From IMG/VR virus record IMGVR_UViG_3300036823_000134, positions 1 through 52,176 of that record: a stretch of 52,176 nucleotides of DNA. The stretch is one strand, 5' to 3'. Each line of letters begins with the position of its first letter. Position 1 is the stretch's first letter. A program made the position numbers and the translations under genes. The DNA is from a virus. Its lineage: Duplodnaviria > Caudoviricetes. Of the stretch, positions 5,373-49,896 are shown piece by piece. The notes under the pieces are model-generated. The model made no database searches and was not told the origin of the DNA. It saw only the letters and a program-made list of their open reading frames with translations.

Positions 5373-8300
5373 GTGGTCGCGATCGACTGGGTAGTCCCTT
5401 GGGACTATGTTCAGGGTGTGGACACCTTTCCTAAGACGGTGTCCATACCTTCTGCGCTAGTAGGACACAAGTTGTTCTTCCTGGCTGCAGGTTTCGCGAT
5501 TGCTGATGCTTCAAGCTTTACACGACTTGACGCTTATCCTGGTCACGGCAATCAAGATGTTGGAATTTCAGAACTAGTAGCTGCTGGTGGTGAGACGTCA
5601 GTCACCTTCAGTCTTAATGGTAGTGGCGCAAGTTGCTCAGGTGTTATCTTTAGTGTAGGCTCTGGGACTTCGTTTGTGGCGTTTAGTAATAACGATGGTG
5701 GTGCTACAGTTGATGTCACAACCGACTTCCAGATCACTCCGACAACAGATCTTACTGCCACAGGTGATAGTATTCTACTATCTGTCGCATCGGTGAGTTC
5801 GGCTTCCGCCTTCTCGACAGCTAACAGACTTAGGCAGCATGGACCGTACGCCAGGATTCTGCGAGAAGGCGGAAACCAAAGCTTTAGCAGTGAAAAGTTA
5901 ATCTTCCAATGTGCTATTGCTGATGTCAATGCTACAACTAGTTATCCCAGGTCACTTGCTGCAGGTCATTGGCGTGCGACTACCGACTGGCTTGCATCAG
6001 GTGACTGTTTTATCACTCAGGCACTTCTTACTGATACTAGTGGCGTGCCCACAGTATCAGTAGCACCTAATGCGATTGTAGAGGAAAACAGTCTTCCAGG
6101 TACAGACAATGGTAACTACTTCCTGGGAATAGCTGGCACATCACCCAACGTTTCTGGATATACTGATAAGTGTACTTACCAGGCAGGCGATACGGTTAAC
6201 TTCCAAGTCTTCACCGAAGACACCGGAACAGGTCAAGTAGAGATCTATCGTCGAGGTTTTTACAGTCGTCAGTCCTTTGGTGCACGCAGTGTGCTAGGCA
6301 ACCAGGACGGTTATCTAACAGTAACTCCTACAGTGCAGCCTGCACCTACGTTTGATAGTACTACAGGTATGAACTCCTGTGCATGGACAACTAATGCAAG
6401 CTGGACCATACCTTCAGATACGCCTTCAGGTCTATACTATGTCGTTTATCGACGTACAGATATGACAGCTGCAGCATCAGGACACTTTATCGTTAGGCCT
6501 AGTAGTTTTGCAGATAAGTTCGTTTACCTGATCAGTGATGCAACGCACCAGATGTACAATCTCTGGAGTGATCCTGGTGACTTTGGGCCGCGCGATATTG
6601 GCGGCGTATATTCAACTAACTCGCACGACGTATATCAGGCCGGCACGGATCTTGCATTTTCGCAGTTTACAAATCGAGGTTATCAAGTATCGTTTGATCG
6701 ACCATATACTACGCAGTCTAATAATGATACTACGTATATCAACGACGTATGTGTAGGACAGATCTGCTTCTTCGAAGCGCAGGGCTACGATATAGTCTAC
6801 GCATCCGATATGGATTGCATGACTGACGAGCACGTCTTCGACGATGCCAAGGCTATCATCTTTGGCGGACACCATGAATATGTCCATGAGAAGATGTACA
6901 ATGCTTATCGCAACGCTCAGGCTAACGGTGTAGACTTTGCCGATCTTTCTAGTAATACAGCACTCTGGCGTATAGGATTTGATCCGGCAGACACAAGTTT
7001 TCGTAACCCTTTCTGCTACAAGGATACGGGTACTATCACAACAGGTGCAGGTTTCACAGGCGATGGATTTACTCCTGCTGGCGTACTCGACACTGACTGG
7101 ACAGGTACTTGGCGAGATTCACGTTCACTAAATCCCGACATACGACGTGAGAACGAACTGTTCGGACAGATCTTTGTAGCTTCAGGTCCTGCACTGCAGG
7201 TAGCGCAGATCGATCAAGCGTTCCAGAATTCGCCTGTCTGGCGTAACTCTTCTGACATCCTTGCCTTAGGTCCGAGTGCTACTTATTCTAGTACAACGAA
7301 TATGGAAGGATTCGAGCTAGAAAGTCGCGACGGTTCTCTGGGTGAACCTACTAACATAGTTGATCTTTGGCGGCACTTGTACACAGGTCTTCACTTCCTG
7401 ACTAATGATGATGGTTCTACGTACAATGATATAGGCGATCTAGAACTTGGCTGGACACTGCACCGTGTTGATAGTACTGAAGCAAATGGCATTCCTGCAC
7501 CATTCGTCTTCAACGGTGGCGCTTGGCGTTGTACGTGGAGTTTAACGCTGTGGCAGTCAGGAAGGCCTTCTGGGTCTGTTACTGACCTGAATATGCAAAA
7601 TGCGTTCTTGTCTATATTCAATGATATAGGCATGGTTCCTGTTACTCTTCAGTCAATGAAGCCTGGTGAAGATCCTGACGTTACAGATCCCAGTATCGGT
7701 GCTCCTGGTCCAGGTAGAGCTGACGTAGCAAAGGCGTACGGACTATCTGTACCTGATCAGACTATTAATGCGGTAGGTATCTCAAGCTCCGAATCGTTCG
7801 AGAATGTCACTGTCGCGTCTGGCTCGACGAGCCTAACTCCCAGAGGCGTGATTAGTGATGAACGATTCGGAACCGGTACCCTGACTACAAGTGTTACCGT
7901 ACCTCCAGTAGGGATTGTTTCTTCTGGCTCCGTAGGCAACGCTACCTGCACTAGTGTAGTCTTCGTCGAGACTCAAGGAATTCCTTCAGCGGCAGCACTT
8001 GGTAGTCAGGGTACCGCACTATCTACGTCTGTGACACCTCCAGGCTTGAACTTTTCTGGTTATCCGGGCGCTGCGGAGGTTGTGCCTATAATTTCCTCCA
8101 CAAGTGTTTCGACAGGTGAACTAGTAAGTTCTGCCGATTCTGTATTTGGTGTAAACACCATATCACCGGCAGGAGTGAAGAGTAGTGAAGAGTTTGGCGC
8201 GTCACAGACAACAACCCAGAGTTTCATTCAACCATCAGGATCGACATCCAGTGAACAAACTGGATCTCCAACACGCTCAACCACTACAGGAATCCTTCCC

Positions 8301-9476
8301 GGAGGGGTTGGAAGCGTTGAGGGGTTTGGAAACGCTTCGGCTACTGGTAGCAACATCATATCCCCAGGTGGACTCCCAGATGCTGCTCGATTCGGAAACG
8401 GAACTGTTGCAAACCTTGCTGAAGCTCAGCCGGTCGGTATCACGTCACAGGAAACCGTCGGCGCCTCGACGGTTGTGGCGGGGAGTATTGGAATACTTAC
8501 GACAGGTTTGGCAGAACCTGAAACTGTAGGTATGCCTACGGTCGTAGTAGGCCTGGCTACTATAGATCTTGCGGGAGTTGTATCTAGGGAACAACTGGGT
8601 AACACCAGCCTCACGACAAGTATTACATCCAGTGTTAATACAATTCCTACTAGTGCAGAAGTGGGAACGCCAAATGTCTCTGCAAATGTTTCAATCTCCC
8701 CTACCGGAGGACCTTCTTCCGGAGAGGCATTCGGATCTGCCTCTCTGGATGCTGCAGTGGCAGCAGTGGCAGGAAGCGTTACGAGCGAACAAGCGACAGG
8801 CACGCCGCAGGTCGGATCAAACATACGGTTCACCGTTCCAAGCAATGTTGGACCATTCGAGAGCGTGGGCACGCCTAGTGTCAGCATTGGCGCCGTTACG
8901 ATCATTCCAGCTGGGATTAGATCTGAAAATCGTTTCGGTGTCTCATCTGCAACCCCTAGCAGTGTATCCGTTCAGTTGGTCGGAATCACCAGTGATGCAG
9001 CCACTGGCGCCGTCTCGGTCGCAGTACTCGGAGTACTTATCCAACCAGTTGGCATTGTTTCCGAAGAGCATACTGGAAATTCCCGTACAATCCCGGGTAG
9101 CCTCACGATTGCCACTAACGGTATCGATTCAGGCGAGGGATTCTCTGTCACCGACGTTGAACTCACTAGATCAACCCCTGTTGAATCTGTGCCGTCGGGA
9201 GAGCAGCTGGGTAATGTAACCCTAGGCCGTGTGGGTTCTGCTAGTAGTATTAGTTCCGCTGAAGCGTTTGGCATTCCAGCTGTTCATACAGGAGCGGCAT
9301 TCATTGTACCTCCGGGTATATCTTCGTCGATACAGGTAGGGTCCAGCCGCATAAGTTTGGCTATTTCATTCGTGCGCGTCGAAGCTGATGGTGCAGTAGT
9401 CTTGTTCGGTGCAGATATGGGTGAGTTGTTCTATAATGCTGTACCTGTCCTGCTCTGGGAAGGTGAACCAGAATGA
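5373..9476 (+). CDS. Large virion appendage/fibre-like protein with an N,N-dimethylformamidase beta-subunit-like (DUF6605-like) domain and a C-terminal repeat stalk
   Basis: Motifs ENSLPGT, IYRRGFY, PSDTPSGLY, HFIVR, THQMYN, VSFDRPY, GYDIVY, GHHEY; about 20 G-I-x-S-x-E-x-x-G repeats of ~24-26 aa after ~7755. Confidence 0.7.
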   Translation: MVAIDWVVPWDYVQGVDTFPKTVSIPSALVGHKLFFLAAGFAIADASSFTRLDAYPGHGNQDVGISELVAAGGETSVTFSLNGSGASCSGVIFSVGSGTSFVAFSNNDGGATVDVTTDFQITPTTDLTATGDSILLSVASVSSASAFSTANRLRQHGPYARILREGGNQSFSSEKLIFQCAIADVNATTSYPRSLAAGHWRATTDWLASGDCFITQALLTDTSGVPTVSVAPNAIVEENSLPGTDNGNYFLGIAGTSPNVSGYTDKCTYQAGDTVNFQVFTEDTGTGQVEIYRRGFYSRQSFGARSVLGNQDGYLTVTPTVQPAPTFDSTTGMNSCAWTTNASWTIPSDTPSGLYYVVYRRTDMTAAASGHFIVRPSSFADKFVYLISDATHQMYNLWSDPGDFGPRDIGGVYSTNSHDVYQAGTDLAFSQFTNRGYQVSFDRPYTTQSNNDTTYINDVCVGQICFFEAQGYDIVYASDMDCMTDEHVFDDAKAIIFGGHHEYVHEKMYNAYRNAQANGVDFADLSSNTALWRIGFDPADTSFRNPFCYKDTGTITTGAGFTGDGFTPAGVLDTDWTGTWRDSRSLNPDIRRENELFGQIFVASGPALQVAQIDQAFQNSPVWRNSSDILALGPSATYSSTTNMEGFELESRDGSLGEPTNIVDLWRHLYTGLHFLTNDDGSTYNDIGDLELGWTLHRVDSTEANGIPAPFVFNGGAWRCTWSLTLWQSGRPSGSVTDLNMQNAFLSIFNDIGMVPVTLQSMKPGEDPDVTDPSIGAPGPGRADVAKAYGLSVPDQTINAVGISSSESFENVTVASGSTSLTPRGVISDERFGTGTLTTSVTVPPVGIVSSGSVGNATCTSVVFVETQGIPSAAALGSQGTALSTSVTPPGLNFSGYPGAAEVVPIISSTSVSTGELVSSADSVFGVNTISPAGVKSSEEFGASQTTTQSFIQPSGSTSSEQTGSPTRSTTTGILPGGVGSVEGFGNASATGSNIISPGGLPDAARFGNGTVANLAEAQPVGITSQETVGASTVVAGSIGILTTGLAEPETVGMPTVVVGLATIDLAGVVSREQLGNTSLTTSITSSVNTIPTSAEVGTPNVSANVSISPTGGPSSGEAFGSASLDAAVAAVAGSVTSEQATGTPQVGSNIRFTVPSNVGPFESVGTPSVSIGAVTIIPAGIRSENRFGVSSATPSSVSVQLVGITSDAATGAVSVAVLGVLIQPVGIVSEEHTGNSRTIPGSLTIATNGIDSGEGFSVTDVELTRSTPVESVPSGEQLGNVTLGRVGSASSISSAEAFGIPAVHTGAAFIVPPGISSSIQVGSSRISLAISFVRVEADGAVVLFGADMGELFYNAVPVLLWEGEPE
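7755..9360 (+). repeat. Protein-level tandem repeats (~24-26 aa, GIxSxExFG) forming a stalk
   Basis: e.g. AVGISSSESFE, PRGVISDERFG, PAGVKSSEEFG, PVGITSQETVG, PAGIRSENRFG. Confidence 0.8.
9227..9240 (+). repeat. Dispersed 14-bp motif copy
   Basis: CCGTGTGGGTTCTG. Confidence 0.75.
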
Positions 9477-26444: not shown

Positions 26445-26852
26445 TCACTTGAAATCCTTGAGCTTGTAGGCGTCCTGCGCCTGAGGAAGAGCTGTGATAC
26501 CTTCTAGCGCATCTGCAACAGTTTGACCTTGTTCTGCCAGCTTCTTCTGGTTCTCTACATCTTCGATCATAGCAAGGATGTCGTCACGCTTAGTGTATAG
26601 CGCAGCGAGCTGCGCGTCGAACGTGACAATTCGCTTCGTGCGAACCTCGATATTGTCCTTATTCAGGTTCCTTCGATTACCATCACTGAAGTAAACTCGC
26701 TCACCCTTACGTAGCGGTCGACCAAGCTTCTCTTCCATCAGGATGTGATGGGTTAGTCTGAACCTTCCATCCTGCTTCGTGTAGTGGTAGCCATTGTCAC
26801 TAACGTACGTAGATCCGTCAGGTTTACCGACAGCTACGCGGGAATTGGCCAT
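26445..26852 (-). CDS. HNH-family protein (degenerate active site) with a coiled-coil tail
   Basis: HHILMEEKLGRPL...ERVYFSDGNRRNLNKDNIEV. Confidence 0.7.
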   Translation of the reverse strand: MANSRVAVGKPDGSTYVSDNGYHYTKQDGRFRLTHHILMEEKLGRPLRKGERVYFSDGNRRNLNKDNIEVRTKRIVTFDAQLAALYTKRDDILAMIEDVENQKKLAEQGQTVADALEGITALPQAQDAYKLKDFK

Positions 26853-29188
26853 TTCTTCAAGTCACCCCATGTCTCGCCGACTTTGGCATCTACTTCGAAC
26901 GGAACGTAGTCGGTCCACTGTGCACCCGAACCAACCATTGCAGTCTGAATAATGTGCGCAACTTCAGGAAGGTTTTCTTCTGAGCATTCAGCCGTAAGAG
27001 CGTCGTGAATAGTGAGTCGAAGAAATCCAAGCCCGACCAACTTAGGACGACAGTTAATAAGAGCTCGGAGACAGATATCGGATGCCGTTGATTGTGGTTT
27101 GAACGAGAGTGCCTCATTCAGTACGTCCTTCCGGTTCTCTCTAGTGATAAGAGGAAAGCGTCGATGACGTCCGAATGTTGTAGTGAGATCCCTTCCAGAT
27201 AGAACCTGACGCTGAATAGATTCTTGCCATGCCACAATGCCTGGGATAAGTCCCTTGAACGCTGCTACATCTCGTTCAGCTTCTCGAGGAGACCATCCGT
27301 ATTCCATTGCAATGCTATAGGCATCTCGGCCATATCCAAGGCCATAGAAGTACGCCTTGACTCTGACTCGCTCATCTTCGGTCAGACCATTCTTTGAATA
27401 CAACTTCGTTCCCAGTTCAGTAAACAGGTCACGCTCTGAGTCACAGAAGATACTGCGCAGGTATTCATCCTGCGCAAGTGTTGTCATTACTCTTCCTTCA
27501 GCCTGCTTGTAATCAAATTGTGCCAGAACGTTCCCCACCCGTGACACTCGGAACTGTCGCTTGATGTTATCATCACGGACAATATTTTGTAGGTTGGGGT
27601 TTCTGCTGGCCAGTCGACCTGAAGTAGAACCGTGTAGGAGGTAGGTGGTGAAGAGGCGTCCTCGATACACACGCTTACGTAGTCCCTTGACGTATGTACT
27701 GTGACGTTTAGCCTCTCGCCGATGCTTGAGAAGTTGTCGTGTGAATTCGTGGAGCTCCCCTGTGAGCCTAGGAAGGATAGACTCGAGAGTATCTGCAGTG
27801 GTGTCCCTAAGGAAGATTCGATGATCGGCATAGAATGCTGTGAGCTGTTTGGGGCTTCGTGGATTGATCCCCCCTTTCTTGTCGTAGTCTTTCGAAACCA
27901 TTTCATCGAGTGCCTCTTCCATTTTGCCTAGTACTTCAACGTACGAAGCATCTAGTGCGGCGTTATGTGTAAGGTCGAACTTGATTCCGTTGAGTTCCAG
28001 AAACATCAGCTCATTGGAAGCCGCAACGAGAAAATCGTGAAGCTTTCGGAGCCCAAGTCGCTCAAGTTCATCCTCGAAGAACGTAGCGAGCTCCCAAGTG
28101 CAGTCAACATCATAAGCGTTGTATCGATAGAGGACTGGTCGAGGGATGTTAGCGTAGGAAGCTCTCTTACCAAGGTACTTATCCAAGTCCCTATCGTACT
28201 GAGGTGCGCCAAGTATTTCAACAGCGAGGTACTTGAGGCCGTGGTGCCCTGGCCTTTCATCGAGACAGTAATGCGCAAGCATGGTGTCGAAGTGCAATCG
28301 TAGACGACCCACGTATCGATAAAGGCCTGAGAGGTCAAATTTGCCATTCTGCGCAATCAACTTCTTCCGGTTGAAGAGCCACTCTAAGCGTGACCAAACT
28401 CTAGGAGTGAAACAGTTCTCACCGAAGACGAGCGCCTTCTTCTTTGCATACTGCACACCAACGCAAAGCATGTCATGCTCGTTGGGATGATCGAAGCTGG
28501 TATCCTTCTCGATTCCAACTTCGATGTCAACGACAAGTTTGTCTGTTAGTACATCGAGTTGCGCAATCGCTTCGAGAGCACGAAGTTCGTCATCCACAAT
28601 GTCGATCGTCGGCGGAATCCACTCGGGCTGTTCATGAATGAGCTTACCGGTGTCATTGACGAGCGAGGGGAAGTGGTCCCCACTGCGAAGACAAGCAGCA
28701 GGATGGAAAGTAGCAACGACCTTTTTGCCTTCCCAGTCACGGGCTGGACCGACGCGGAGAGCTGTGATGCCTTGTGTTGCACGAAGGATAGACCTCGCTG
28801 CGACATTTCCCAGCGCAAGAACTTGGTCAGCTTCTCGGAGGTCGTCGAGTAGCCGTCCCCTGCAAGCCTCGACTGCTGCTGCTGGAGGCGTTGCATTATC
28901 GAGAGGGCGGCAGAGGCAGGCGTTAGTGACGATCGCAGCCTGGCGATCAAGTCCGTGGTGGTCGAGTACTCGCTGGAGGAGCTTACCCGAAGGGCCAATG
29001 AATGGCTTACCGGCGTACGCTTCCTGTAGTCCGGGAGCTTCTCCAACAATTGCAAGACGTTTGGCCCCGTTATGTGAACGGCTTGGGGACTGTGTAGGGA
29101 CAAAGGATCCATCCTCTCGTAGAGGGCAAGATTCACAGTGCGCTCTTGGATCTTTTCGCCTTACTGACGAGGCGCGGTCTTCCACCAT
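26834..29188 (-). CDS. Family A DNA polymerase with an N-terminal family-4 uracil-DNA glycosylase-like domain
   Basis: UDG: CESCPL, GEAPG, PFIGPSG, TNACLCRP, TFHPAA; exonuclease: DIE, NGKFD, YNAYD; polymerase: GRLASRNPNLQNI, DYKQAE, KAYFYGLGYG, TIHDAL. Confidence 0.95.
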   Translation of the reverse strand: MVEDRASSVRRKDPRAHCESCPLREDGSFVPTQSPSRSHNGAKRLAIVGEAPGLQEAYAGKPFIGPSGKLLQRVLDHHGLDRQAAIVTNACLCRPLDNATPPAAAVEACRGRLLDDLREADQVLALGNVAARSILRATQGITALRVGPARDWEGKKVVATFHPAACLRSGDHFPSLVNDTGKLIHEQPEWIPPTIDIVDDELRALEAIAQLDVLTDKLVVDIEVGIEKDTSFDHPNEHDMLCVGVQYAKKKALVFGENCFTPRVWSRLEWLFNRKKLIAQNGKFDLSGLYRYVGRLRLHFDTMLAHYCLDERPGHHGLKYLAVEILGAPQYDRDLDKYLGKRASYANIPRPVLYRYNAYDVDCTWELATFFEDELERLGLRKLHDFLVAASNELMFLELNGIKFDLTHNAALDASYVEVLGKMEEALDEMVSKDYDKKGGINPRSPKQLTAFYADHRIFLRDTTADTLESILPRLTGELHEFTRQLLKHRREAKRHSTYVKGLRKRVYRGRLFTTYLLHGSTSGRLASRNPNLQNIVRDDNIKRQFRVSRVGNVLAQFDYKQAEGRVMTTLAQDEYLRSIFCDSERDLFTELGTKLYSKNGLTEDERVRVKAYFYGLGYGRDAYSIAMEYGWSPREAERDVAAFKGLIPGIVAWQESIQRQVLSGRDLTTTFGRHRRFPLITRENRKDVLNEALSFKPQSTASDICLRALINCRPKLVGLGFLRLTIHDALTAECSEENLPEVAHIIQTAMVGSGAQWTDYVPFEVDAKVGETWGDLKKWPIPA

Positions 29189-44625: not shown

Positions 44626-45049
44626 CCAACTCAACACCTTTGGCAAGCAAGTCGTACAGTCGATCGACACGGCTAGACAACCGAATGACTCGATCTTCAA
44701 TTTCATCCATGCGTGTCAACTTCTTTGTTTGCACCATCTTAGGGCCTTCGAATAGCTCTAGTGTAGGCTCATGAAGAAGCTCCCACTGGCTAGGTGTCGA
44801 AGACCCGCCGCGTCGTAACTGTTCGACGCAGCCCATTGCTTCAAGTGCCTTGAGAATCTTCGTGTAGTAGGGAACAGACAGACTCAGCTCGTCTCGAATA
44901 ACGTGCGTCATGAAGCCAGTCCACACTACGCGCTCGTTGCGATTGTCATCCTTGATGATGTCACTCTTAGAGCGCAGAAACTGATACGCTCGTACACAAT
45001 GATTGAACAGCATCACTGGGGGAGAATCGGTCTCCGTCATGGTCATCAC
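44618..45049 (-). CDS. Winged-helix DNA-binding protein (possible transcription regulator)
   Basis: LSVPYYTKILKALEAMGCVEQLRRGG wHTH-like pattern plus a coiled-coil tail; RBS GAGGAGG. Confidence 0.6.
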   Translation of the reverse strand: MMTMTETDSPPVMLFNHCVRAYQFLRSKSDIIKDDNRNERVVWTGFMTHVIRDELSLSVPYYTKILKALEAMGCVEQLRRGGSSTPSQWELLHEPTLELFEGPKMVQTKKLTRMDEIEDRVIRLSSRVDRLYDLLAKGVELDG

Positions 45050-45063
45050 CTCCTCTATATCTA

Positions 45064-45093
45064 ATTATATAGTAGTCATTACTGTGAAGTCAA
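45064..45093 (-). promoter_or_regulatory. SigA-like promoter
   Basis: TTGACT-N18-TATAAT. Confidence 0.8.
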
Positions 45094-45100
45094 CGGGGTA

Positions 45101-45134
45101 TAAAACTAGCCCGTACGGACTTGTACGGGCTAGT
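45101..45134 (-). terminator. Rho-independent terminator
   Basis: ACTAGCCCGTAC/GTACGGGCTAGT 12-bp stem followed by a T tract on the minus strand. Confidence 0.9.
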
Positions 45135-45168
45135 AAGTGACTTGCAACGGACTCGTTATTGTCACTCG

Positions 45169-45314
45169 TAGGAGAGGCTGGATTCGAACCAGCTGACAGG
45201 TTATCCAAGGCCAAATACATTCGGCGGATAACTCTATAGGAGTGCACTTCCTACCATGCTTCCGAGAACGTCTTATGAGTTCTCACCGACGCTCATCACG
45301 TACGGTACTCTCCT
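45169..45314 (-). ncRNA. tRNA(Met, CAU)-like RNA with a ~70-nt structured insertion in the variable region
   Basis: Acceptor AGGAGAG/CUCUCCU, U8A9, D-like stem, GAGAA-CUCAUAA-gacg-UUCUC, T arm GCUGG-UUCGAAU-CCAGC. Confidence 0.75.
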
Positions 45315-45465
45315 CCAGCAGCGTAAGTAGACCAGGCAATAGAGAAGCTCACCTATTGTCAGTTACCATGCGCTACGTGTGTTGGCCCGACTCGAAATTA
45401 AGGCTTTCGCCCGGGCAGGGGATCCTAACACAGGTCGCCGTGCCTGTTTCTCCCGCAACACATCA
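45315..45465 (-). ncRNA. Structured non-coding leader upstream of the tRNA-like domain
   Basis: Hairpins ACAGG/CCUGU, UGUGUU/AACACA enclosing GCCCG/CGGGC and GGC-GAAA-GCC, GUAGCG/CGCUGC enclosing CAAUAG/CUAUUG. Confidence 0.45.
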
Positions 45466-45469
45466 CTCG

Positions 45470-45967
45470 TCAGCTCTCGGCTTCGGTGAACTCACCTTCG
45501 GCCTCGACCGGCGAAGCTTCCTTCACTGCGGGCTTCGCGACCTTCTTCGCGGCGGCGTTGGCCTTGCGCTCGGCGGCGCGCTTCACCTTGTCGGCCCACC
45601 ATGCCAGGCCTTCGTCCAGCTTGAACGCCCGACGCTCGACCTGGTTGTCGTCGAGGATCATCTTCAGGTCGCCGTTCTCGGTGTTCGGGAACGGGTGATC
45701 CTTGGGAGCATTCTTGATGTAGCTGTACACGACCTGCGGAGGCACGATCACGTTCGTCTCCGCGGGCTGATTGTCATCGTTGCCGTAGCCCTTGCTCGTC
45801 AGCTCCTTGGCGAACTGCACTGGCGTGACGTAGCCATCGGGCAGCGTGCCTCGCTTCGGCTTCGTGGCGACAGTCGGCTTGGCTTCGGTGGGGGTAGCGG
45901 CCGTCTCGGGAACCTCTTCGGTCTCGTCGAAGTTCTCGACTTCGGCGTCCGTGTCTGCGTGAGTCAT
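45470..45967 (-). CDS. HTH DNA-binding protein, paralog 2
   Basis: VTPVQFAK...VPPQVVYSYIKN; acidic N-terminus, Lys/Ala-rich tail; GC3-rich codons. Confidence 0.75.
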   Translation of the reverse strand: MTHADTDAEVENFDETEEVPETAATPTEAKPTVATKPKRGTLPDGYVTPVQFAKELTSKGYGNDDNQPAETNVIVPPQVVYSYIKNAPKDHPFPNTENGDLKMILDDNQVERRAFKLDEGLAWWADKVKRAAERKANAAAKKVAKPAVKEASPVEAEGEFTEAES

Positions 45968-46010
45968 TTCTGCGTCTCCTCGCTTGGTAATGTTTTTTGC
46001 TTCTGAGTTA

Positions 46011-46040
46011 ATTATAGCTTAGGACATACTAGGATATCAA
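46011..46040 (-). promoter_or_regulatory. SigA-like promoter
   Basis: TTGATA-N18-TATAAT. Confidence 0.75.
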
Positions 46041-46085
46041 GGCTAAAAACTGGGGAAATTTCTGATTTCAGCAAGATCTTTTTGA

Positions 46086-46304
46086 TCAGTCTCGCGCATA
46101 CCTGGCCACCTTGGAATGCCTAACCCAAACAGGCCTTCCCATGACCATGTTGACTCCTAGAGCGCCAAACATAGCTGCTCCACCGAACATCATGATCCCG
46201 AAGGGTGCAAGAACGATCGTGCAGCATAGTGCTGCTCCTACTAGGCAAACAACAGTAGCTACCAGACAGATAAGCAACCCCCCGATAACTTTAACGATGC
46301 GCAT
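46086..46304 (-). CDS. Small membrane protein (2 TM)
   Basis: RBS GAGGAGG; hydrophobic. Confidence 0.75.
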   Translation of the reverse strand: MRIVKVIGGLLICLVATVVCLVGAALCCTIVLAPFGIMMFGGAAMFGALGVNMVMGRPVWVRHSKVARYARD

Positions 46305-46317
46305 ATTCACCTCCTCG

Positions 46318-46371
46318 GGACCATCGTCAGGGCGGTCTCAATTCCGCCGACCCCTCACGGGGTTTCGGTCC
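46318..46371 (-). ncRNA. Type II hammerhead ribozyme (HH1)
   Basis: GGACC-GAAA-CCCC-gtga-GGGG-UC^GGCGG-aauugaga-CCGCC-CUGACGA-u-GGUCC. Confidence 0.9.
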
Positions 46372-46373
46372 AG

Positions 46374-46568
46374 CTACTTACGGATTACTTTCCGTGCGAT
46401 CACAATCGGATCGTCGACGTACTCGGCTGCAAACGGTTTCGCCAACGCATCTGCATGCACTTCGGTGATTGCCTTCAGAACGACAATGACGTCAGTCTTC
46501 CCAGAAGGTCTCTGGCTCTTCTTCCCCTGGAACTTCACTTCCCAGGTCTTGGACGTTAACTTTCGCAT
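46374..46568 (-). CDS. Hypothetical protein
   Basis: 64 aa; stop abuts the ribozyme. Confidence 0.65.
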   Translation of the reverse strand: MRKLTSKTWEVKFQGKKSQRPSGKTDVIVVLKAITEVHADALAKPFAAEYVDDPIVIARKVIRK

Positions 46569-46704
46569 GTCTTCTCAGGCTCCTGTAGTCCCAACCGATT
46601 TCTCTGAGCACTTGAATTGCCTGTCTCCGCAACGATACTCCGATATCGTACGGGTGTGCAACAGTGAGTGTATACGTCCTTGGCTGTACTTTAGCGAACC
46701 GCAC
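46492..46704 (-). CDS. Hypothetical protein
   Basis: 70 aa; overlaps the downstream ORF. Confidence 0.45.
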   Translation of the reverse strand: MRFAKVQPRTYTLTVAHPYDIGVSLRRQAIQVLREIGWDYRSLRRHAKVNVQDLGSEVPGEEEPETFWED

Positions 46705-46906
46705 GACGCCACTGCTTCTTGGACACGCCGTAAGGCTTGCGGACTCTTGTCTTCACCTTGTTGATGCCCATGTTGTACGTGGATACCTGAACACGCTCTT
46801 CCTTGCGGCCTTGAGCATTCTCCACGAGCAACGACCTGTGTTCGACGATGAAGTGCTTCTTCGAACCTTCGATCTCCTGCAGCTCTAGCGACTTACCGTG
46901 TGCCAT
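46691..46906 (-). CDS. Hypothetical basic protein
   Basis: RBS GAGGAG before MAHGKS. Confidence 0.65.
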   Translation of the reverse strand: MAHGKSLELQEIEGSKKHFIVEHRSLLVENAQGRKEERVQVSTYNMGINKVKTRVRKPYGVSKKQWRRAVR

Positions 46907-47126
46907 CGGACTGCTCCTCTGCGCGGTTCTTTTCGGTACGCATTGGTAGTGATTCGTACGCCCGTACGGCTGCGAAGTGAGCCTGAGCGAGAGTTGCCAA
47001 CGCAGTTGCCCTTTCGTGATGGAAGATCGTGTGATCAAGATCGATAGACTCCGCTGCGATCTTCAGGCACTGATTCGCTTCGACGAGAAGCTCTTCGCCC
47101 TTGTCGTAGTGTTCGTTCCTGTTCAT
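46893..47126 (-). CDS. Hypothetical protein
   Basis: MNRNEHY...LAQAHFAA. Confidence 0.65.
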   Translation of the reverse strand: MNRNEHYDKGEELLVEANQCLKIAAESIDLDHTIFHHERATALATLAQAHFAAVRAYESLPMRTEKNRAEEQSDGTR

Positions 47127-47128
47127 CA

Positions 47129-47275
47129 CTACTTTCCAATCGCCGGATTGATGTTGTGTGCGATGTTGATAGCGATCCACTCGAACGCACCTGCGATGGC
47201 TTCGATCACCTGAGGCCACACGATGGATACGATCAGGTAAAGAATCGCAATCAGGCCCAATACTGCCCACTTCAC
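47129..47275 (-). CDS. Small membrane protein (48 aa)
   Basis: Not in the ORF track; MKWAVLGLIAILYLIVSIVW...; start overlaps the upstream stop. Confidence 0.6.
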   Translation of the reverse strand: MKWAVLGLIAILYLIVSIVWPQVIEAIAGAFEWIAINIAHNINPAIGK

Positions 47276-47568
47276 CTTTTGTGCTCCCAGCTCTCGATCA
47301 GCTTACGCATACCTCTGTCATACTCCGGGAAGAAGCTGTAGTGTCCCCAGTTACCTTCCAGGAACTTCTGAGAGATCAGGTAAACGCGTCCATCCTCATG
47401 GGTGAAACGCTTCAGTGCTTGCGCACTGGTTACCTCTGCATCAATTTCTCTTACTAGGTCACTCATGACTAACTCTCCCTTGAGCTCATCAGCACGGTAT
47501 TGAACCGTGGACGCCTCTCGGCGTTTCGCTCTGTCAGCCCTTGAAGTCCGGTTCGTCTTCTGTCTCAC
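47272..47568 (-). CDS. Hypothetical protein
   Basis: Start uncertain; possibly an internal ATG with RBS AGGGAG. Confidence 0.55.
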   Translation of the reverse strand: MRQKTNRTSRADRAKRREASTVQYRADELKGELVMSDLVREIDAEVTSAQALKRFTHEDGRVYLISQKFLEGNWGHYSFFPEYDRGMRKLIESWEHKR

Positions 47569-47737
47569 GTCCTTCCAGGTTCGCTTTCTCTGCGTCGGTC
47601 AGCTGAGCCTCCTGAATAATTTCGTACCTGCCGTGGTGCTCGTCTTCGGTCGAGAGATCCAACTGGTGTTGGTACGCCTCGACCACATCACCGAAAAGGT
47701 CCTGACAGTCGAGACACTTCAGAATCAACGTAACCAT
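47534..47737 (-). CDS. Hypothetical Zn-finger-like protein
   Basis: CLDC...H...H; RBS AGGAG. Confidence 0.65.
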   Translation of the reverse strand: MVTLILKCLDCQDLFGDVVEAYQHQLDLSTEDEHHGRYEIIQEAQLTDAEKANLEGRETEDEPDFKG

Positions 47738-47741
47738 CTTG

Positions 47742-48047
47742 CTACTCCTGTCGTCCTCGAACTTTCGACGCGTAGTTCTTACACGTCATTTCGCCACACG
47801 CTCCGTCGGAGAACTTCTTGTGTCTGCACTCTTTGACGATCATCACGAGGGCGAAGTGGTAGAGATCCCAGAGTATGTTCGGATTGCCTGCATGACGGGA
47901 GTTAACGATGTCTTCAGGTGTGACGTCCAGCTGCTGGTAGTAGTGAACGACTGTCCACACGGCTTCATCGTTCAACGGTTCACCATCAGCGTCTGCGGTG
48001 ATCTCCTGCACAACCCAGTTGTGCAATGCAGTGATATCCTGAGGCAT
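47742..48047 (-). CDS. Hypothetical protein
   Basis: MPQDIT start overlaps the upstream stop. Confidence 0.65.
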   Translation of the reverse strand: MPQDITALHNWVVQEITADADGEPLNDEAVWTVVHYYQQLDVTPEDIVNSRHAGNPNILWDLYHFALVMIVKECRHKKFSDGACGEMTCKNYASKVRGRQE

Positions 48048-48391
48048 TATGACCAACCCCTCAGTGCATTGAGGCGTGCCTCTTGCTCGTCGCCTTCGGT
48101 CCACTCCGTGAACTCCACATCATCGAGCGTGTGCTCCTGCTTCCGGAGCTTCTCCGTACGCACTGCCTCGTTCGCGACATTGCGGTGGTGCTTGGAGCAC
48201 ATCTTGTCGTGCGCCTTGATCACTGCATTCCTCGACCCGAACACCAGCAACTTACTAGCAGACTTGTTCAGGACGGTGTGATTCGCACTGTTGTCGTAGA
48301 TGCAGAACCTCGCACCATGTCCGTAAAGCTTTCGATCGTCTATCGTCAAGAGCCGGATCTCGTAGCGGCAGGTGTGGTCAACCGCTTCCAT
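48047..48391 (-). CDS. Hypothetical protein
   Basis: 114 aa, directly downstream of HH2. Confidence 0.65.
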   Translation of the reverse strand: MEAVDHTCRYEIRLLTIDDRKLYGHGARFCIYDNSANHTVLNKSASKLLVFGSRNAVIKAHDKMCSKHHRNVANEAVRTEKLRKQEHTLDDVEFTEWTEGDEQEARLNALRGWS

Positions 48392-48417
48392 CTTGTGAAC
48401 TATTTCGGTTCCTCTCT

Positions 48418-48469
48418 AGGTCTCCTCAGCACGCCTATTAGACGTGGACCCCTCACGGGGTTTCGACCT
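48418..48469 (-). ncRNA. Type II hammerhead ribozyme (HH2)
   Basis: AGGUC-GAAA-CCCC-gtga-GGGG-UC^CACGUC-uaaua-GGCGUG-CUGAGGA-GACCU. Confidence 0.92.
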
Positions 48470-48471
48470 CA

Positions 48472-48675
48472 CTAGATTTCGTTGACTGCTGCAAACCAAT
48501 GTCCGTTGGAGAGCCCAACCTGCACGTTGTAGCTCCAATCCCACGGGACGCCTGCCCAGAACGTGCTACCGTAGAACGCAAAGCTTCCGCTGATGAACAT
48601 GTACGCCAACGCGCAACCGAGAACGATCAAAACCCACACGGACTTTCGTTGCATGACCTTGTTCATGCTCTCCAC
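48472..48675 (-). CDS. Small membrane protein
   Basis: One TM segment; stop abuts the ribozyme. Confidence 0.65.
   Translation of the reverse strand: MESMNKVMQRKSVWVLIVLGCALAYMFISGSFAFYGSTFWAGVPWDWSYNVQVGLSNGHWFAAVNEI
48628..48641 (-). repeat. Dispersed 14-bp motif copy (minus strand)
   Basis: Reverse complement is CCGTGTGGGTTTTG. Confidence 0.85.
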
Positions 48676-48914
48676 CCTTCTCCCATCTGTCCTTTGATCT
48701 GTGACATCGCGGTCAGCATGTCCGATGCTGTCCTGTGAAAGAACGCCATCTCCTCCTGCTCGGGTGCTGTGAGGTGTCGTCCTGCAGCCTTCTTGCTCAG
48801 TACTTCGATACCGTCAAGCACCGCATCCAGTTGCGTTTCGCAAGCAAGGTACACTGGACTGCACATGTGCTCCGAAATCTGTATTTCGCCGTCCATTGTA
48901 TACATTGTTCCCAC
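48663..48914 (-). CDS. Hypothetical protein
   Basis: RBS AAGGAGG; downstream of a promoter. Confidence 0.7.
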   Translation of the reverse strand: MGTMYTMDGEIQISEHMCSPVYLACETQLDAVLDGIEVLSKKAAGRHLTAPEQEEMAFFHRTASDMLTAMSQIKGQMGEGWRA

Positions 48915-48959
48915 CTCCTTTCAGACGGATAGTAAGTCCCAATCTTTTGCTTTCAATTA

Positions 48960-48989
48960 ATTATATCTGCGACCACAAGGACTAATCAA
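48960..48989 (-). promoter_or_regulatory. SigA-like promoter
   Basis: TTGATT-N18-TATAAT. Confidence 0.75.
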
Positions 48990-49005
48990 GGCTCAATTTT
49001 TGACT

Positions 49006-49867: not shown

Positions 49868-49896
49868 ATTATATAGTAGTCACTGGGTAATCTCAA
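49868..49896 (-). promoter_or_regulatory. SigA-like promoter (leaderless)
   Basis: TTGAGA-N17-TATAAT. Confidence 0.7.

Follow-up and report, generated by a model that had tools for sequence, protein, structure and literature searches.

A type II hammerhead motif between two early genes of a soil-metagenome phage and its two further copies in the same operon

The window analysed here, a stretch of 52,176 nt, is the whole of the IMG/VR record IMGVR_UViG_3300036823_000134 (Duplodnaviria; Caudoviricetes). The record is linear, is estimated to be 86% complete, and the only sequencing run found to contain its sequence is a soil-metagenome DNA run, possibly its source. The plus strand carries structural genes, including those for a Mu-like portal and a tape-measure-type minor tail protein, and the minus strand encodes a PolA-UDG fusion, a DUF3987 protein, a PD-(D/E)XK nuclease and a SNF2 helicase. 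The fusion (26834-29188, minus strand) combines a family A DNA polymerase with an N-terminal uracil-DNA glycosylase superfamily domain in one ORF. On the plus strand, a 1367-aa protein of the structural module (5373-9476) matches DMFA2_C (E 8e-49), the C-terminal domain of N,N-dimethylformamidase beta subunit-like proteins, which is unusual for a gene of a virion module.

Upstream of these minus-strand genes lies a row of small ORFs, none of which matches a PHROG. Between 48914 and 46086 the genes mostly overlap or abut, and the sizeable gaps, of 80, 67 and 69 nt, each hold a hammerhead motif. The element HH-A (46318..46371, minus strand), a type II hammerhead motif of 54 nt, is located between two genes of this putative early operon. 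The upstream ORF of 64 aa (46374..46568, minus strand) ends with a TAG at 46376..46374, 2 nt before HH-A. The downstream ORF of 72 aa (46086..46304, minus strand) starts with an ATG 13 nt past HH-A, and the Shine-Dalgarno sequence GAGGAGG (46316..46310, minus strand) is situated in between; neither ORF has a PHROG match. The 72-aa product is strongly hydrophobic: its Kyte-Doolittle mean over 19 residues reaches a maximum of 2.87, within residues ~1-55, and it likely is a membrane protein with two spans. A preliminary description of this DNA had placed the element 2 nt past a stop codon and directly before a GAGGAGG ribosome binding site, filling a gap ahead of a small membrane-protein gene. 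The positions of the TAG and of the Shine-Dalgarno sequence agree with this, the hydrophobicity supports the membrane protein, and HH-A does occupy one of the few sizeable intergenic gaps.

Two further hammerhead motifs are located on the same strand of the same operon, at spacings of 938 and 1160 nt. HH-B (47482..47531, minus strand, type II, 50 nt) begins 2 nt after the TGA of the ORF 47737..47534 and is followed, 15 nt on, by the next ATG at 47466. HH-C (48418..48469, minus strand, type II, 52 nt) begins 2 nt after the TAG of the ORF 48675..48472, the next ATG (48391) following 26 nt on.

Upstream of these genes, the sigma70-like promoter match TTGATT-18-TATAAT (48960..48989, minus strand, 10/12) is a candidate start of the transcript bearing the three hammerheads. 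A stronger match (11/12) is found at 49896..49868 and further ones at 46040..46011 and 45093..45064, likewise on the minus strand, all four being consensus matches only. Each of these matches (10-11/12) is located just 5′ of the start of a minus-strand ORF, which suggests host-polymerase early promoters before these ORFs; the total number of sigma70-like matches in the region is 13, compared to 8.1 +/- 2.9 in shuffled sequences, an excess that is not significant. Terminator-like sites were found on the minus strand neither between 48960 and 46086 nor from the match at 49896..49868 down to 46086. The early polycistronic mRNA assumed in the preliminary description is plausible, because the block of small ORFs comes with promoter matches and without a terminator-like site down to 46086. 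The stem III hairpin of HH-A was considered as a terminator itself and rejected, since no U tract follows it and no terminator-like site is listed there.

Read on the minus strand from 46371 to 46318, HH-A consists of GGACC-GAAA-CCCC-GUGA-GGGG-UC/GGCGG-AAUUGAGA-CCGCC-CUGACGA-U-GGUCC, the slash indicating the predicted cut. The 5′ strand of stem II (GGACC, 46371..46367) is followed by GAAA (46366..46363), which comprises G12-A14 and A15.1, and by the stem III hairpin (46363..46350), in which A-CCCC pairs with GGGG-U around a GUGA loop and U16.1 is located at 46350. Next to C17 (46349), the stem I hairpin GGCGG/CCGCC with the loop AAUUGAGA extends over 46348..46331. The core C3-A9 (CUGACGA, 46330..46324), an extra U (46323) that separates A9 from stem II, and the 3′ strand of stem II (GGUCC, 46322..46318) complete the element, all on the minus strand.

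These assignments agree with the definition of the hammerhead class as regards core bases and helices. HH-A has the core C3-U4-G5-A6-N7-G8-A9, the bases G12-A13-A14, the pair A15.1-U16.1 and, at position 17, where any base other than G is admitted, a C; its three helices meet at the core with paired 1.1-2.1 and 10.1-11.1. Each helix is 5 bp long, namely stem I with G1.1-C2.1, stem II with G10.1-C11.1, and stem III including the A-U pair. Both the 5′ and the 3′ end lie in stem II, and the topology is type II because loops close stem I as well as stem III and stem II is open. Application of the hammerhead consensus to the sequence places the predicted scissile bond at 46349/46348 (minus strand), 3′ of C17 and 5′ of G1.1. 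Moreover, the predicted minimum-energy fold is identical with the hammerhead secondary structure in contexts of 71 nt and 111 nt. The full catalytic core previously reported for the locus (CUGACGA, GAAA and the cut-site bases) was recovered with every conserved base on the minus strand at 46371..46318, and the cut proposed then coincides with the consensus placement after C17. Of the three closed stems in type II topology, the stems and the topology stand but the closure does not, stem II being open, and the extra U (46323) after A9 corrects the earlier account.

In the whole window the type II motif scanner returned three motifs, all of them on the minus strand, and a topology scanner detected no type I or type III hammerhead on either strand of the window. 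In 300 dinucleotide-preserving shuffles of the window, which served as the chance control, the mean was 0.03 motifs; at least one motif occurred in 9/300 and at least three in 0/300. HH-B has the core CUGAUGA, the stem III CGCC/GGCG and a predicted cut at 47510/47509 (minus strand), and HH-C has the core CUGAGGA and a predicted cut at 48447/48446 (minus strand). All three share a block of 19 nt (C-GAAA-stem III-UC; 46349..46367, 47510..47528 and 48447..48465, minus strand), for which 0 occurrences are expected (100 shuffles) and whose copies show at most 3 mismatches.

The three copies differ in the sequences of stems I, II and III with the pairing retained. In their alignment, 93.3% of the 45 pair cells are standard and 7 of the 15 pairs show double-sided, compensatory changes; none of 500 shuffled controls reached the observed value for pairing or for changes on both sides. 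When the structure was shifted by 1-3 columns, pairing amounted to only 33-42%. In the model-fitted alignment stem II of HH-A is partly off register because of the extra U, and all five of its pairs form once U 46323 is taken as an insertion. The folding-energy z-scores of the hammerheads are ordinary (-0.4 to -1.6). Among the predicted minimum-energy folds in contexts of 106-111 nt, only that of HH-A contains the full hammerhead, while in HH-B and HH-C stem II is lost to other pairings.

Searched with Rfam at gathering thresholds, the whole 52,176-nt window gave 0 matches, and in E-value mode it gave 5 weak unrelated matches that did not include a hammerhead. The Hammerhead_II model RF02276, with a gathering score of 37, assigned 18.1 bits to HH-A (E 0.29 in a 301-nt search) and 24.8 bits to HH-B (E 0.02 in a short-region search), both under 37, and HH-C was unlisted at E values up to 10 in a short-region search. 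At the membership level of at least 37 bits HH-A is not part of RF02276, and the Rfam Hammerhead_II search that had been put forward as a check in the preliminary description missed this threshold.

For comparison, viral contigs were fished with a degenerate stem III pattern taken from the window, yielding at least 120 loci. Among the matches listed, 59 of 136 pattern matches are complete type II hammerheads according to a strict scanner, and the remainder mostly have a CCGAUGA core or resemble hammerheads whose stem II is closed. When the loci were scanned over their full length, 130 type II hammerheads were found, again among the matches listed, of which 110 are unique. Alignment A1 comprises 82 of these 110 unique viral type II sequences (among the matches listed) and none from the window; the other 28 were omitted, comprising sequences with long insertions in stem III or a loop and three long doubtful matches. 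The covariance model R1 was built from A1, and the window was searched with filters off. R1 scored HH-B at 61.0 bits (E 1.1e-21), HH-C at 59.8 bits (E 3.5e-21) and HH-A at 50.1 bits (E 2.7e-17) in the whole window, scores whose stem III share is circular because the training loci had been baited with the stem III motif of the window; neither stem I or II nor the CUGANGA core formed part of the bait. In the 52-kb window the model reported exactly these three elements, the next best site scoring 12.9 bits. Applied to 16 viral loci, Rfam reported 13 Hammerhead_II matches, all of them copies in which loop I is long and the 3′ tail complementary, and none of the compact 50-nt copies in the same 16 loci. 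As the Rfam model reported only copies of the pseudoknot type, HH-A is classed as a hammerhead of type II outside the RF02276 subgroup. Phage hammerheads are probably under-counted, since standard Rfam annotation misses the pseudoknot-less build.

The 112 non-redundant viral type II hammerheads among the matches listed fall clearly into two builds of almost equal size. The pseudoknot build (55/112) has a stem II of 3 bp and a loop I of ~12 nt, and its best Watson-Crick run between loop I and the tail is 4.56 bp, compared to 3.2 bp with shuffled tails. The pseudoknot-less build (57/112) has a stem II of 4-5 bp and a loop I of ~8 nt, and its best run of 2.8 bp is close to the 2.7 bp obtained with shuffled tails. 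HH-A, HH-B and HH-C all fall into the latter. In terms of the pseudoknot-less viral type II subgroup as defined in this analysis by R1 and the build statistics, HH-A has the expected stem II of 4-5 bp, loop I of ~7-8 nt and location between stop codon and ribosome binding site. A pseudoknot of at least 4 bp between loop I and the 3′ tail is absent from HH-A, HH-B and HH-C; their best runs are 2 bp of Watson-Crick pairs, or 3 bp adjacent to stem II with G-U pairs. Comparison of loop I with both tails of the three copies gave only runs of 2-4 bp, and the 4-bp runs were rejected as pseudoknots, being far from stem II or in the 5′ tail.

Contacts of the loop I/tail type are usual in fast natural hammerheads and are not strictly defining. 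The majority of type II hammerheads carry such pseudoknots (PMC3088659), and in a tested type II ribozyme the pseudoknot was needed for rapid cleavage at 0.5 mM Mg2+, its absence lowering the rate more than 100-fold (PMC3088659); nevertheless, the known tertiary contacts are missing from many hammerheads (PMC3088659). By analogy HH-A, HH-B and HH-C may be slow cleavers, because they have no pseudoknot whereas the tested type II ribozyme needed one for fast cleavage. One extra base after A9, as in HH-A, is present in 8 of 110 unique viral type II hammerheads among the matches listed and is a U in 8/8; the CChMVd(+) hammerhead tolerates an insertion there at the cost of a moderate drop in rate (PMC1636495).

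The pseudoknot-less hammerheads show additional sequence features. Among the matches listed, 53 of 59 have an A immediately 5′ of stem II, and the 7-nt loop I follows the pattern G-U-R-A-N-G-C (G1 in 37/41, U2 in 39/41, C7 in 37/41). Together, this A and the loop I pattern may be the signature of a tertiary contact that has not been described. In 9 of 59 pseudoknot-less hammerheads from 7 contigs among the matches listed (L006, L043, L064, L070, L075, L095 and L122), the 5 nt after stem II are exactly complementary to the core C3-N7, AUCAG occurring with CUGAUGA six times and GUCAG with CUGACGA three times, with 0 mismatches. Such a core-complementary 5-nt tail was found in 0/55 hammerheads of the pseudoknot build among the matches listed and in none of HH-A, HH-B and HH-C. 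The covarying alternative hairpin would sequester the core and perhaps provide an off-state or a post-cleavage lock.

Another variant, with C instead of U at position 4 (CCGAUGA, CCGACGA or CCGAGGA), accounts for 11 of 110 unique type II hammerheads among the matches listed, two of them doubtful long ones, and occurs at the loci L011, L012, L020, L039/L052, L065, L067, L074 and L086. Apart from the two doubtful cases, these variants have intact stems, and among them are the hammerheads most similar to HH-A, HH-B and HH-C; no discussion of the variant was found in the accessible text of PMC3088659. Furthermore, L047, L074 and L007 among the matches listed contain 7-9 type II hammerheads arrayed over a few kb. 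In such arrays stem II is often near-identical per contig, e.g. GUC/GAC or GGC/GCC.

The placement of HH-A behind a stop codon is shared with other viruses. In a set of 116 non-redundant viral type II hammerheads that includes the three of the window, the stop codon of an upstream frame of at least 50 codons is located -1 to +6 nt from stem II in 81/116 among the matches listed, such a frame being missing in 13/116. Start codons with a Shine-Dalgarno motif are mostly found 17-30 nt downstream of the viral type II hammerheads among the matches listed. This stop-adjacent placement is general among viral type II hammerheads.

A distant relative, L052, shares a 124-aa (41% identity) and a 143-aa protein (37% identity) with the window and has three hammerheads in the interval between the two, the order being that of the window. 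Among the matches listed, HH-A is most closely resembled by a hammerhead in L065, which has the loop AAUCGAGA, the extra U and the tail CGAGGAGG, together with non-homologous flanking genes and the C at position 4 described above. Using blastn with positions 45000-49000 against the phage collection, no match was obtained, and queries with the 143-aa and 165-aa proteins retrieved no close relatives. The SNF2 helicase query retrieved one locus, L124, at 46% identity, in which hammerheads are absent, with only 2.7 kb available upstream of the helicase match. Neither blastn against the phage collection nor the neighbour-protein queries yielded a close relative showing conservation at the same site.

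The type II hammerheads described by Perreault et al. in 2011 (PMC3088659; RF02276) have the same core and the same permutation as HH-A, and those in prophages occur, like the hammerheads of the window, in multiple copies flanking single genes or short blocks (PMC3088659). In the published type II consensus and Rfam model, stem II has 2-3 bp and loop I forms a pseudoknot with the 3′ tail, whereas HH-A has a stem II of 5 bp, an 8-nt loop I without a tail complement of at least 4 bp, and the extra U. Three type II hammerheads of Desulfovibrio vulgaris (PMC8782182), two of them close together, have phage-like gene neighbourhoods as HH-A does, and they cleave in vivo and during in vitro transcription. 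Unlike those of the window, they reside on a bacterial chromosome and were predicted by existing models. HHphage of the haloviruses HF1/HF2 (PMC3088659) is located 13 nt before a start codon, as is HH-A, and belongs to a polycistronic early transcript of which a 5′ end has been mapped close to the cut site; in contrast to HH-A, it has a two-base insertion near C3, depends on salt and precedes the first ORF, a helicase gene, rather than being located between ORFs. As regards the extra U, the still active CChMVd(+) hammerhead also has one extra nucleotide between A9 and G10.1 (PMC1636495), but this viroid ribozyme is of type III and carries an A (A10) there.

The preserved form of HH-A could also be that of a hammerhead-shaped relic or a very slow cleaver acting mainly as a structured intergenic spacer, for instance as a hairpin barrier to exonucleases or as a protein-binding site. 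The lack of a pseudoknot in all three copies, the extra U after A9 in HH-A and the Rfam scores under the threshold would fit this, as would the more than 100-fold lower rate of a tested type II ribozyme after removal of its pseudoknot (PMC3088659). However, the catalytic bases are intact in 3/3 copies while the stems drift with compensation, and a mere spacer is disfavoured because 13 unpaired core bases are preserved. Since, moreover, 57 of 112 viral type II hammerheads among the matches listed are pseudoknot-less and yet retain an intact core, and many hammerheads exist without the known contacts (PMC3088659), we regard a relic or a spacer as unlikely.

It is still less probable, and in our view quite doubtful, that the hammerheads act as paired ribozymes for RNA rearrangement, the released segments being re-joined into circular or spliced RNAs by the reverse ribozyme reaction or by an RtcB-type ligase acting on 5′-OH and 2′,3′-cyclic-phosphate ends. 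Three hammerheads on the same strand, 938 and 1160 nt apart, would suit this idea, which was raised in PMC3088659, and the required end chemistry follows from the hammerhead mechanism, but such products were sought by the authors of PMC3088659 and none were detected, and neither a ligase nor features of circular RNAs are indicated in the window. That the motif is a chance match or, at the DNA level, a repeat such as a protein-binding site or recombination motif that resembles a hammerhead is hardly credible with 0.03 motifs expected per shuffled window and R1 E-values of 1e-17 to 1e-21. The 19-nt block common to the three copies with at most 3 mismatches could be taken for such a repeat, and the Rfam scores are below threshold, yet beyond this block the copies differ and stay paired, which a DNA repeat does not need, and 3/3 copies are on the transcribed strand.

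Judged by its sequence, HH-A is very probably a genuine self-cleaving type II hammerhead that would process this transcript, the remaining doubt concerning mostly rate and role and not identity. The sequence analysis establishes the motif and its copies, their covariation, the agreement with other viral type II hammerheads and the layout of the genes. On the basis of known hammerhead chemistry we infer the cleavage of HH-A and its rate, its effect on expression and its role in operon processing as follows. The 54-nt motif would fold during synthesis of the polycistronic RNA, and the 2′-OH of C17 (46349) would attack the next phosphate, resulting in a cut at 46349/46348. The upstream RNA, its stop codon retained, would terminate in a 2′,3′-cyclic phosphate at the GC-rich hairpin of stem III. 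In the downstream RNA, a 5′-OH would directly precede the stem I hairpin, and next would come the released strand of stem II, the Shine-Dalgarno sequence and the ATG that opens the membrane-protein gene. Cuts at all three hammerheads would leave the operon of ~2.9 kb in four blocks that comprise 2, 3, about 5 and 1 genes, and we propose that the stability and translation of each block would thereby become independent of its neighbours. Ends with 5′-OH and 2′,3′-cyclic phosphate are poor substrates for end-dependent decay. Engineered insulators of the RiboJ type, derived from a satellite-RNA hammerhead, consist of a self-cleaving hammerhead before the ribosome binding site that leaves a defined 5′-OH end plus a hairpin, and they uncouple gene expression from the upstream sequence. 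By analogy, HH-A may be a functional parallel of such insulators.

With regard to known systems HH-A is ordinary, as clustered type II hammerheads by small phage genes have been known since 2011 (PMC3088659). For clustered phage hammerheads, the processing of polycistronic transcripts has been proposed (PMC3088659; PMC6765202), and their role is still called open in reviews (PMC6155905; PMC6765202). The additions made here are modest and consist of two further copies, a pseudoknot-less build that is missed by Rfam, and the rule of stop-codon-adjacent placement. The phage is a compact test case, with three canonical-core ribozymes in a 2.9-kb string of small early genes, each located 2 nt past a stop codon and 13-26 nt ahead of the next start codon. 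A more speculative reading, which we consider possible but rather improbable, is that HH-A, HH-B and HH-C belong to a large, unmodelled pseudoknot-less phage subgroup with an undescribed docking of stems I and II that serves as a natural "insulator". If this were true, the conserved A 5′ of stem II and, usually, the G-U-R-A-N-G-C loop I would be the marks of the subgroup, and early operons would be cut right behind stop codons, each gene block thereby obtaining a hairpin-protected 5′-OH or 2′,3′-cyclic-phosphate end, and stability and translation rate would be set per gene block.
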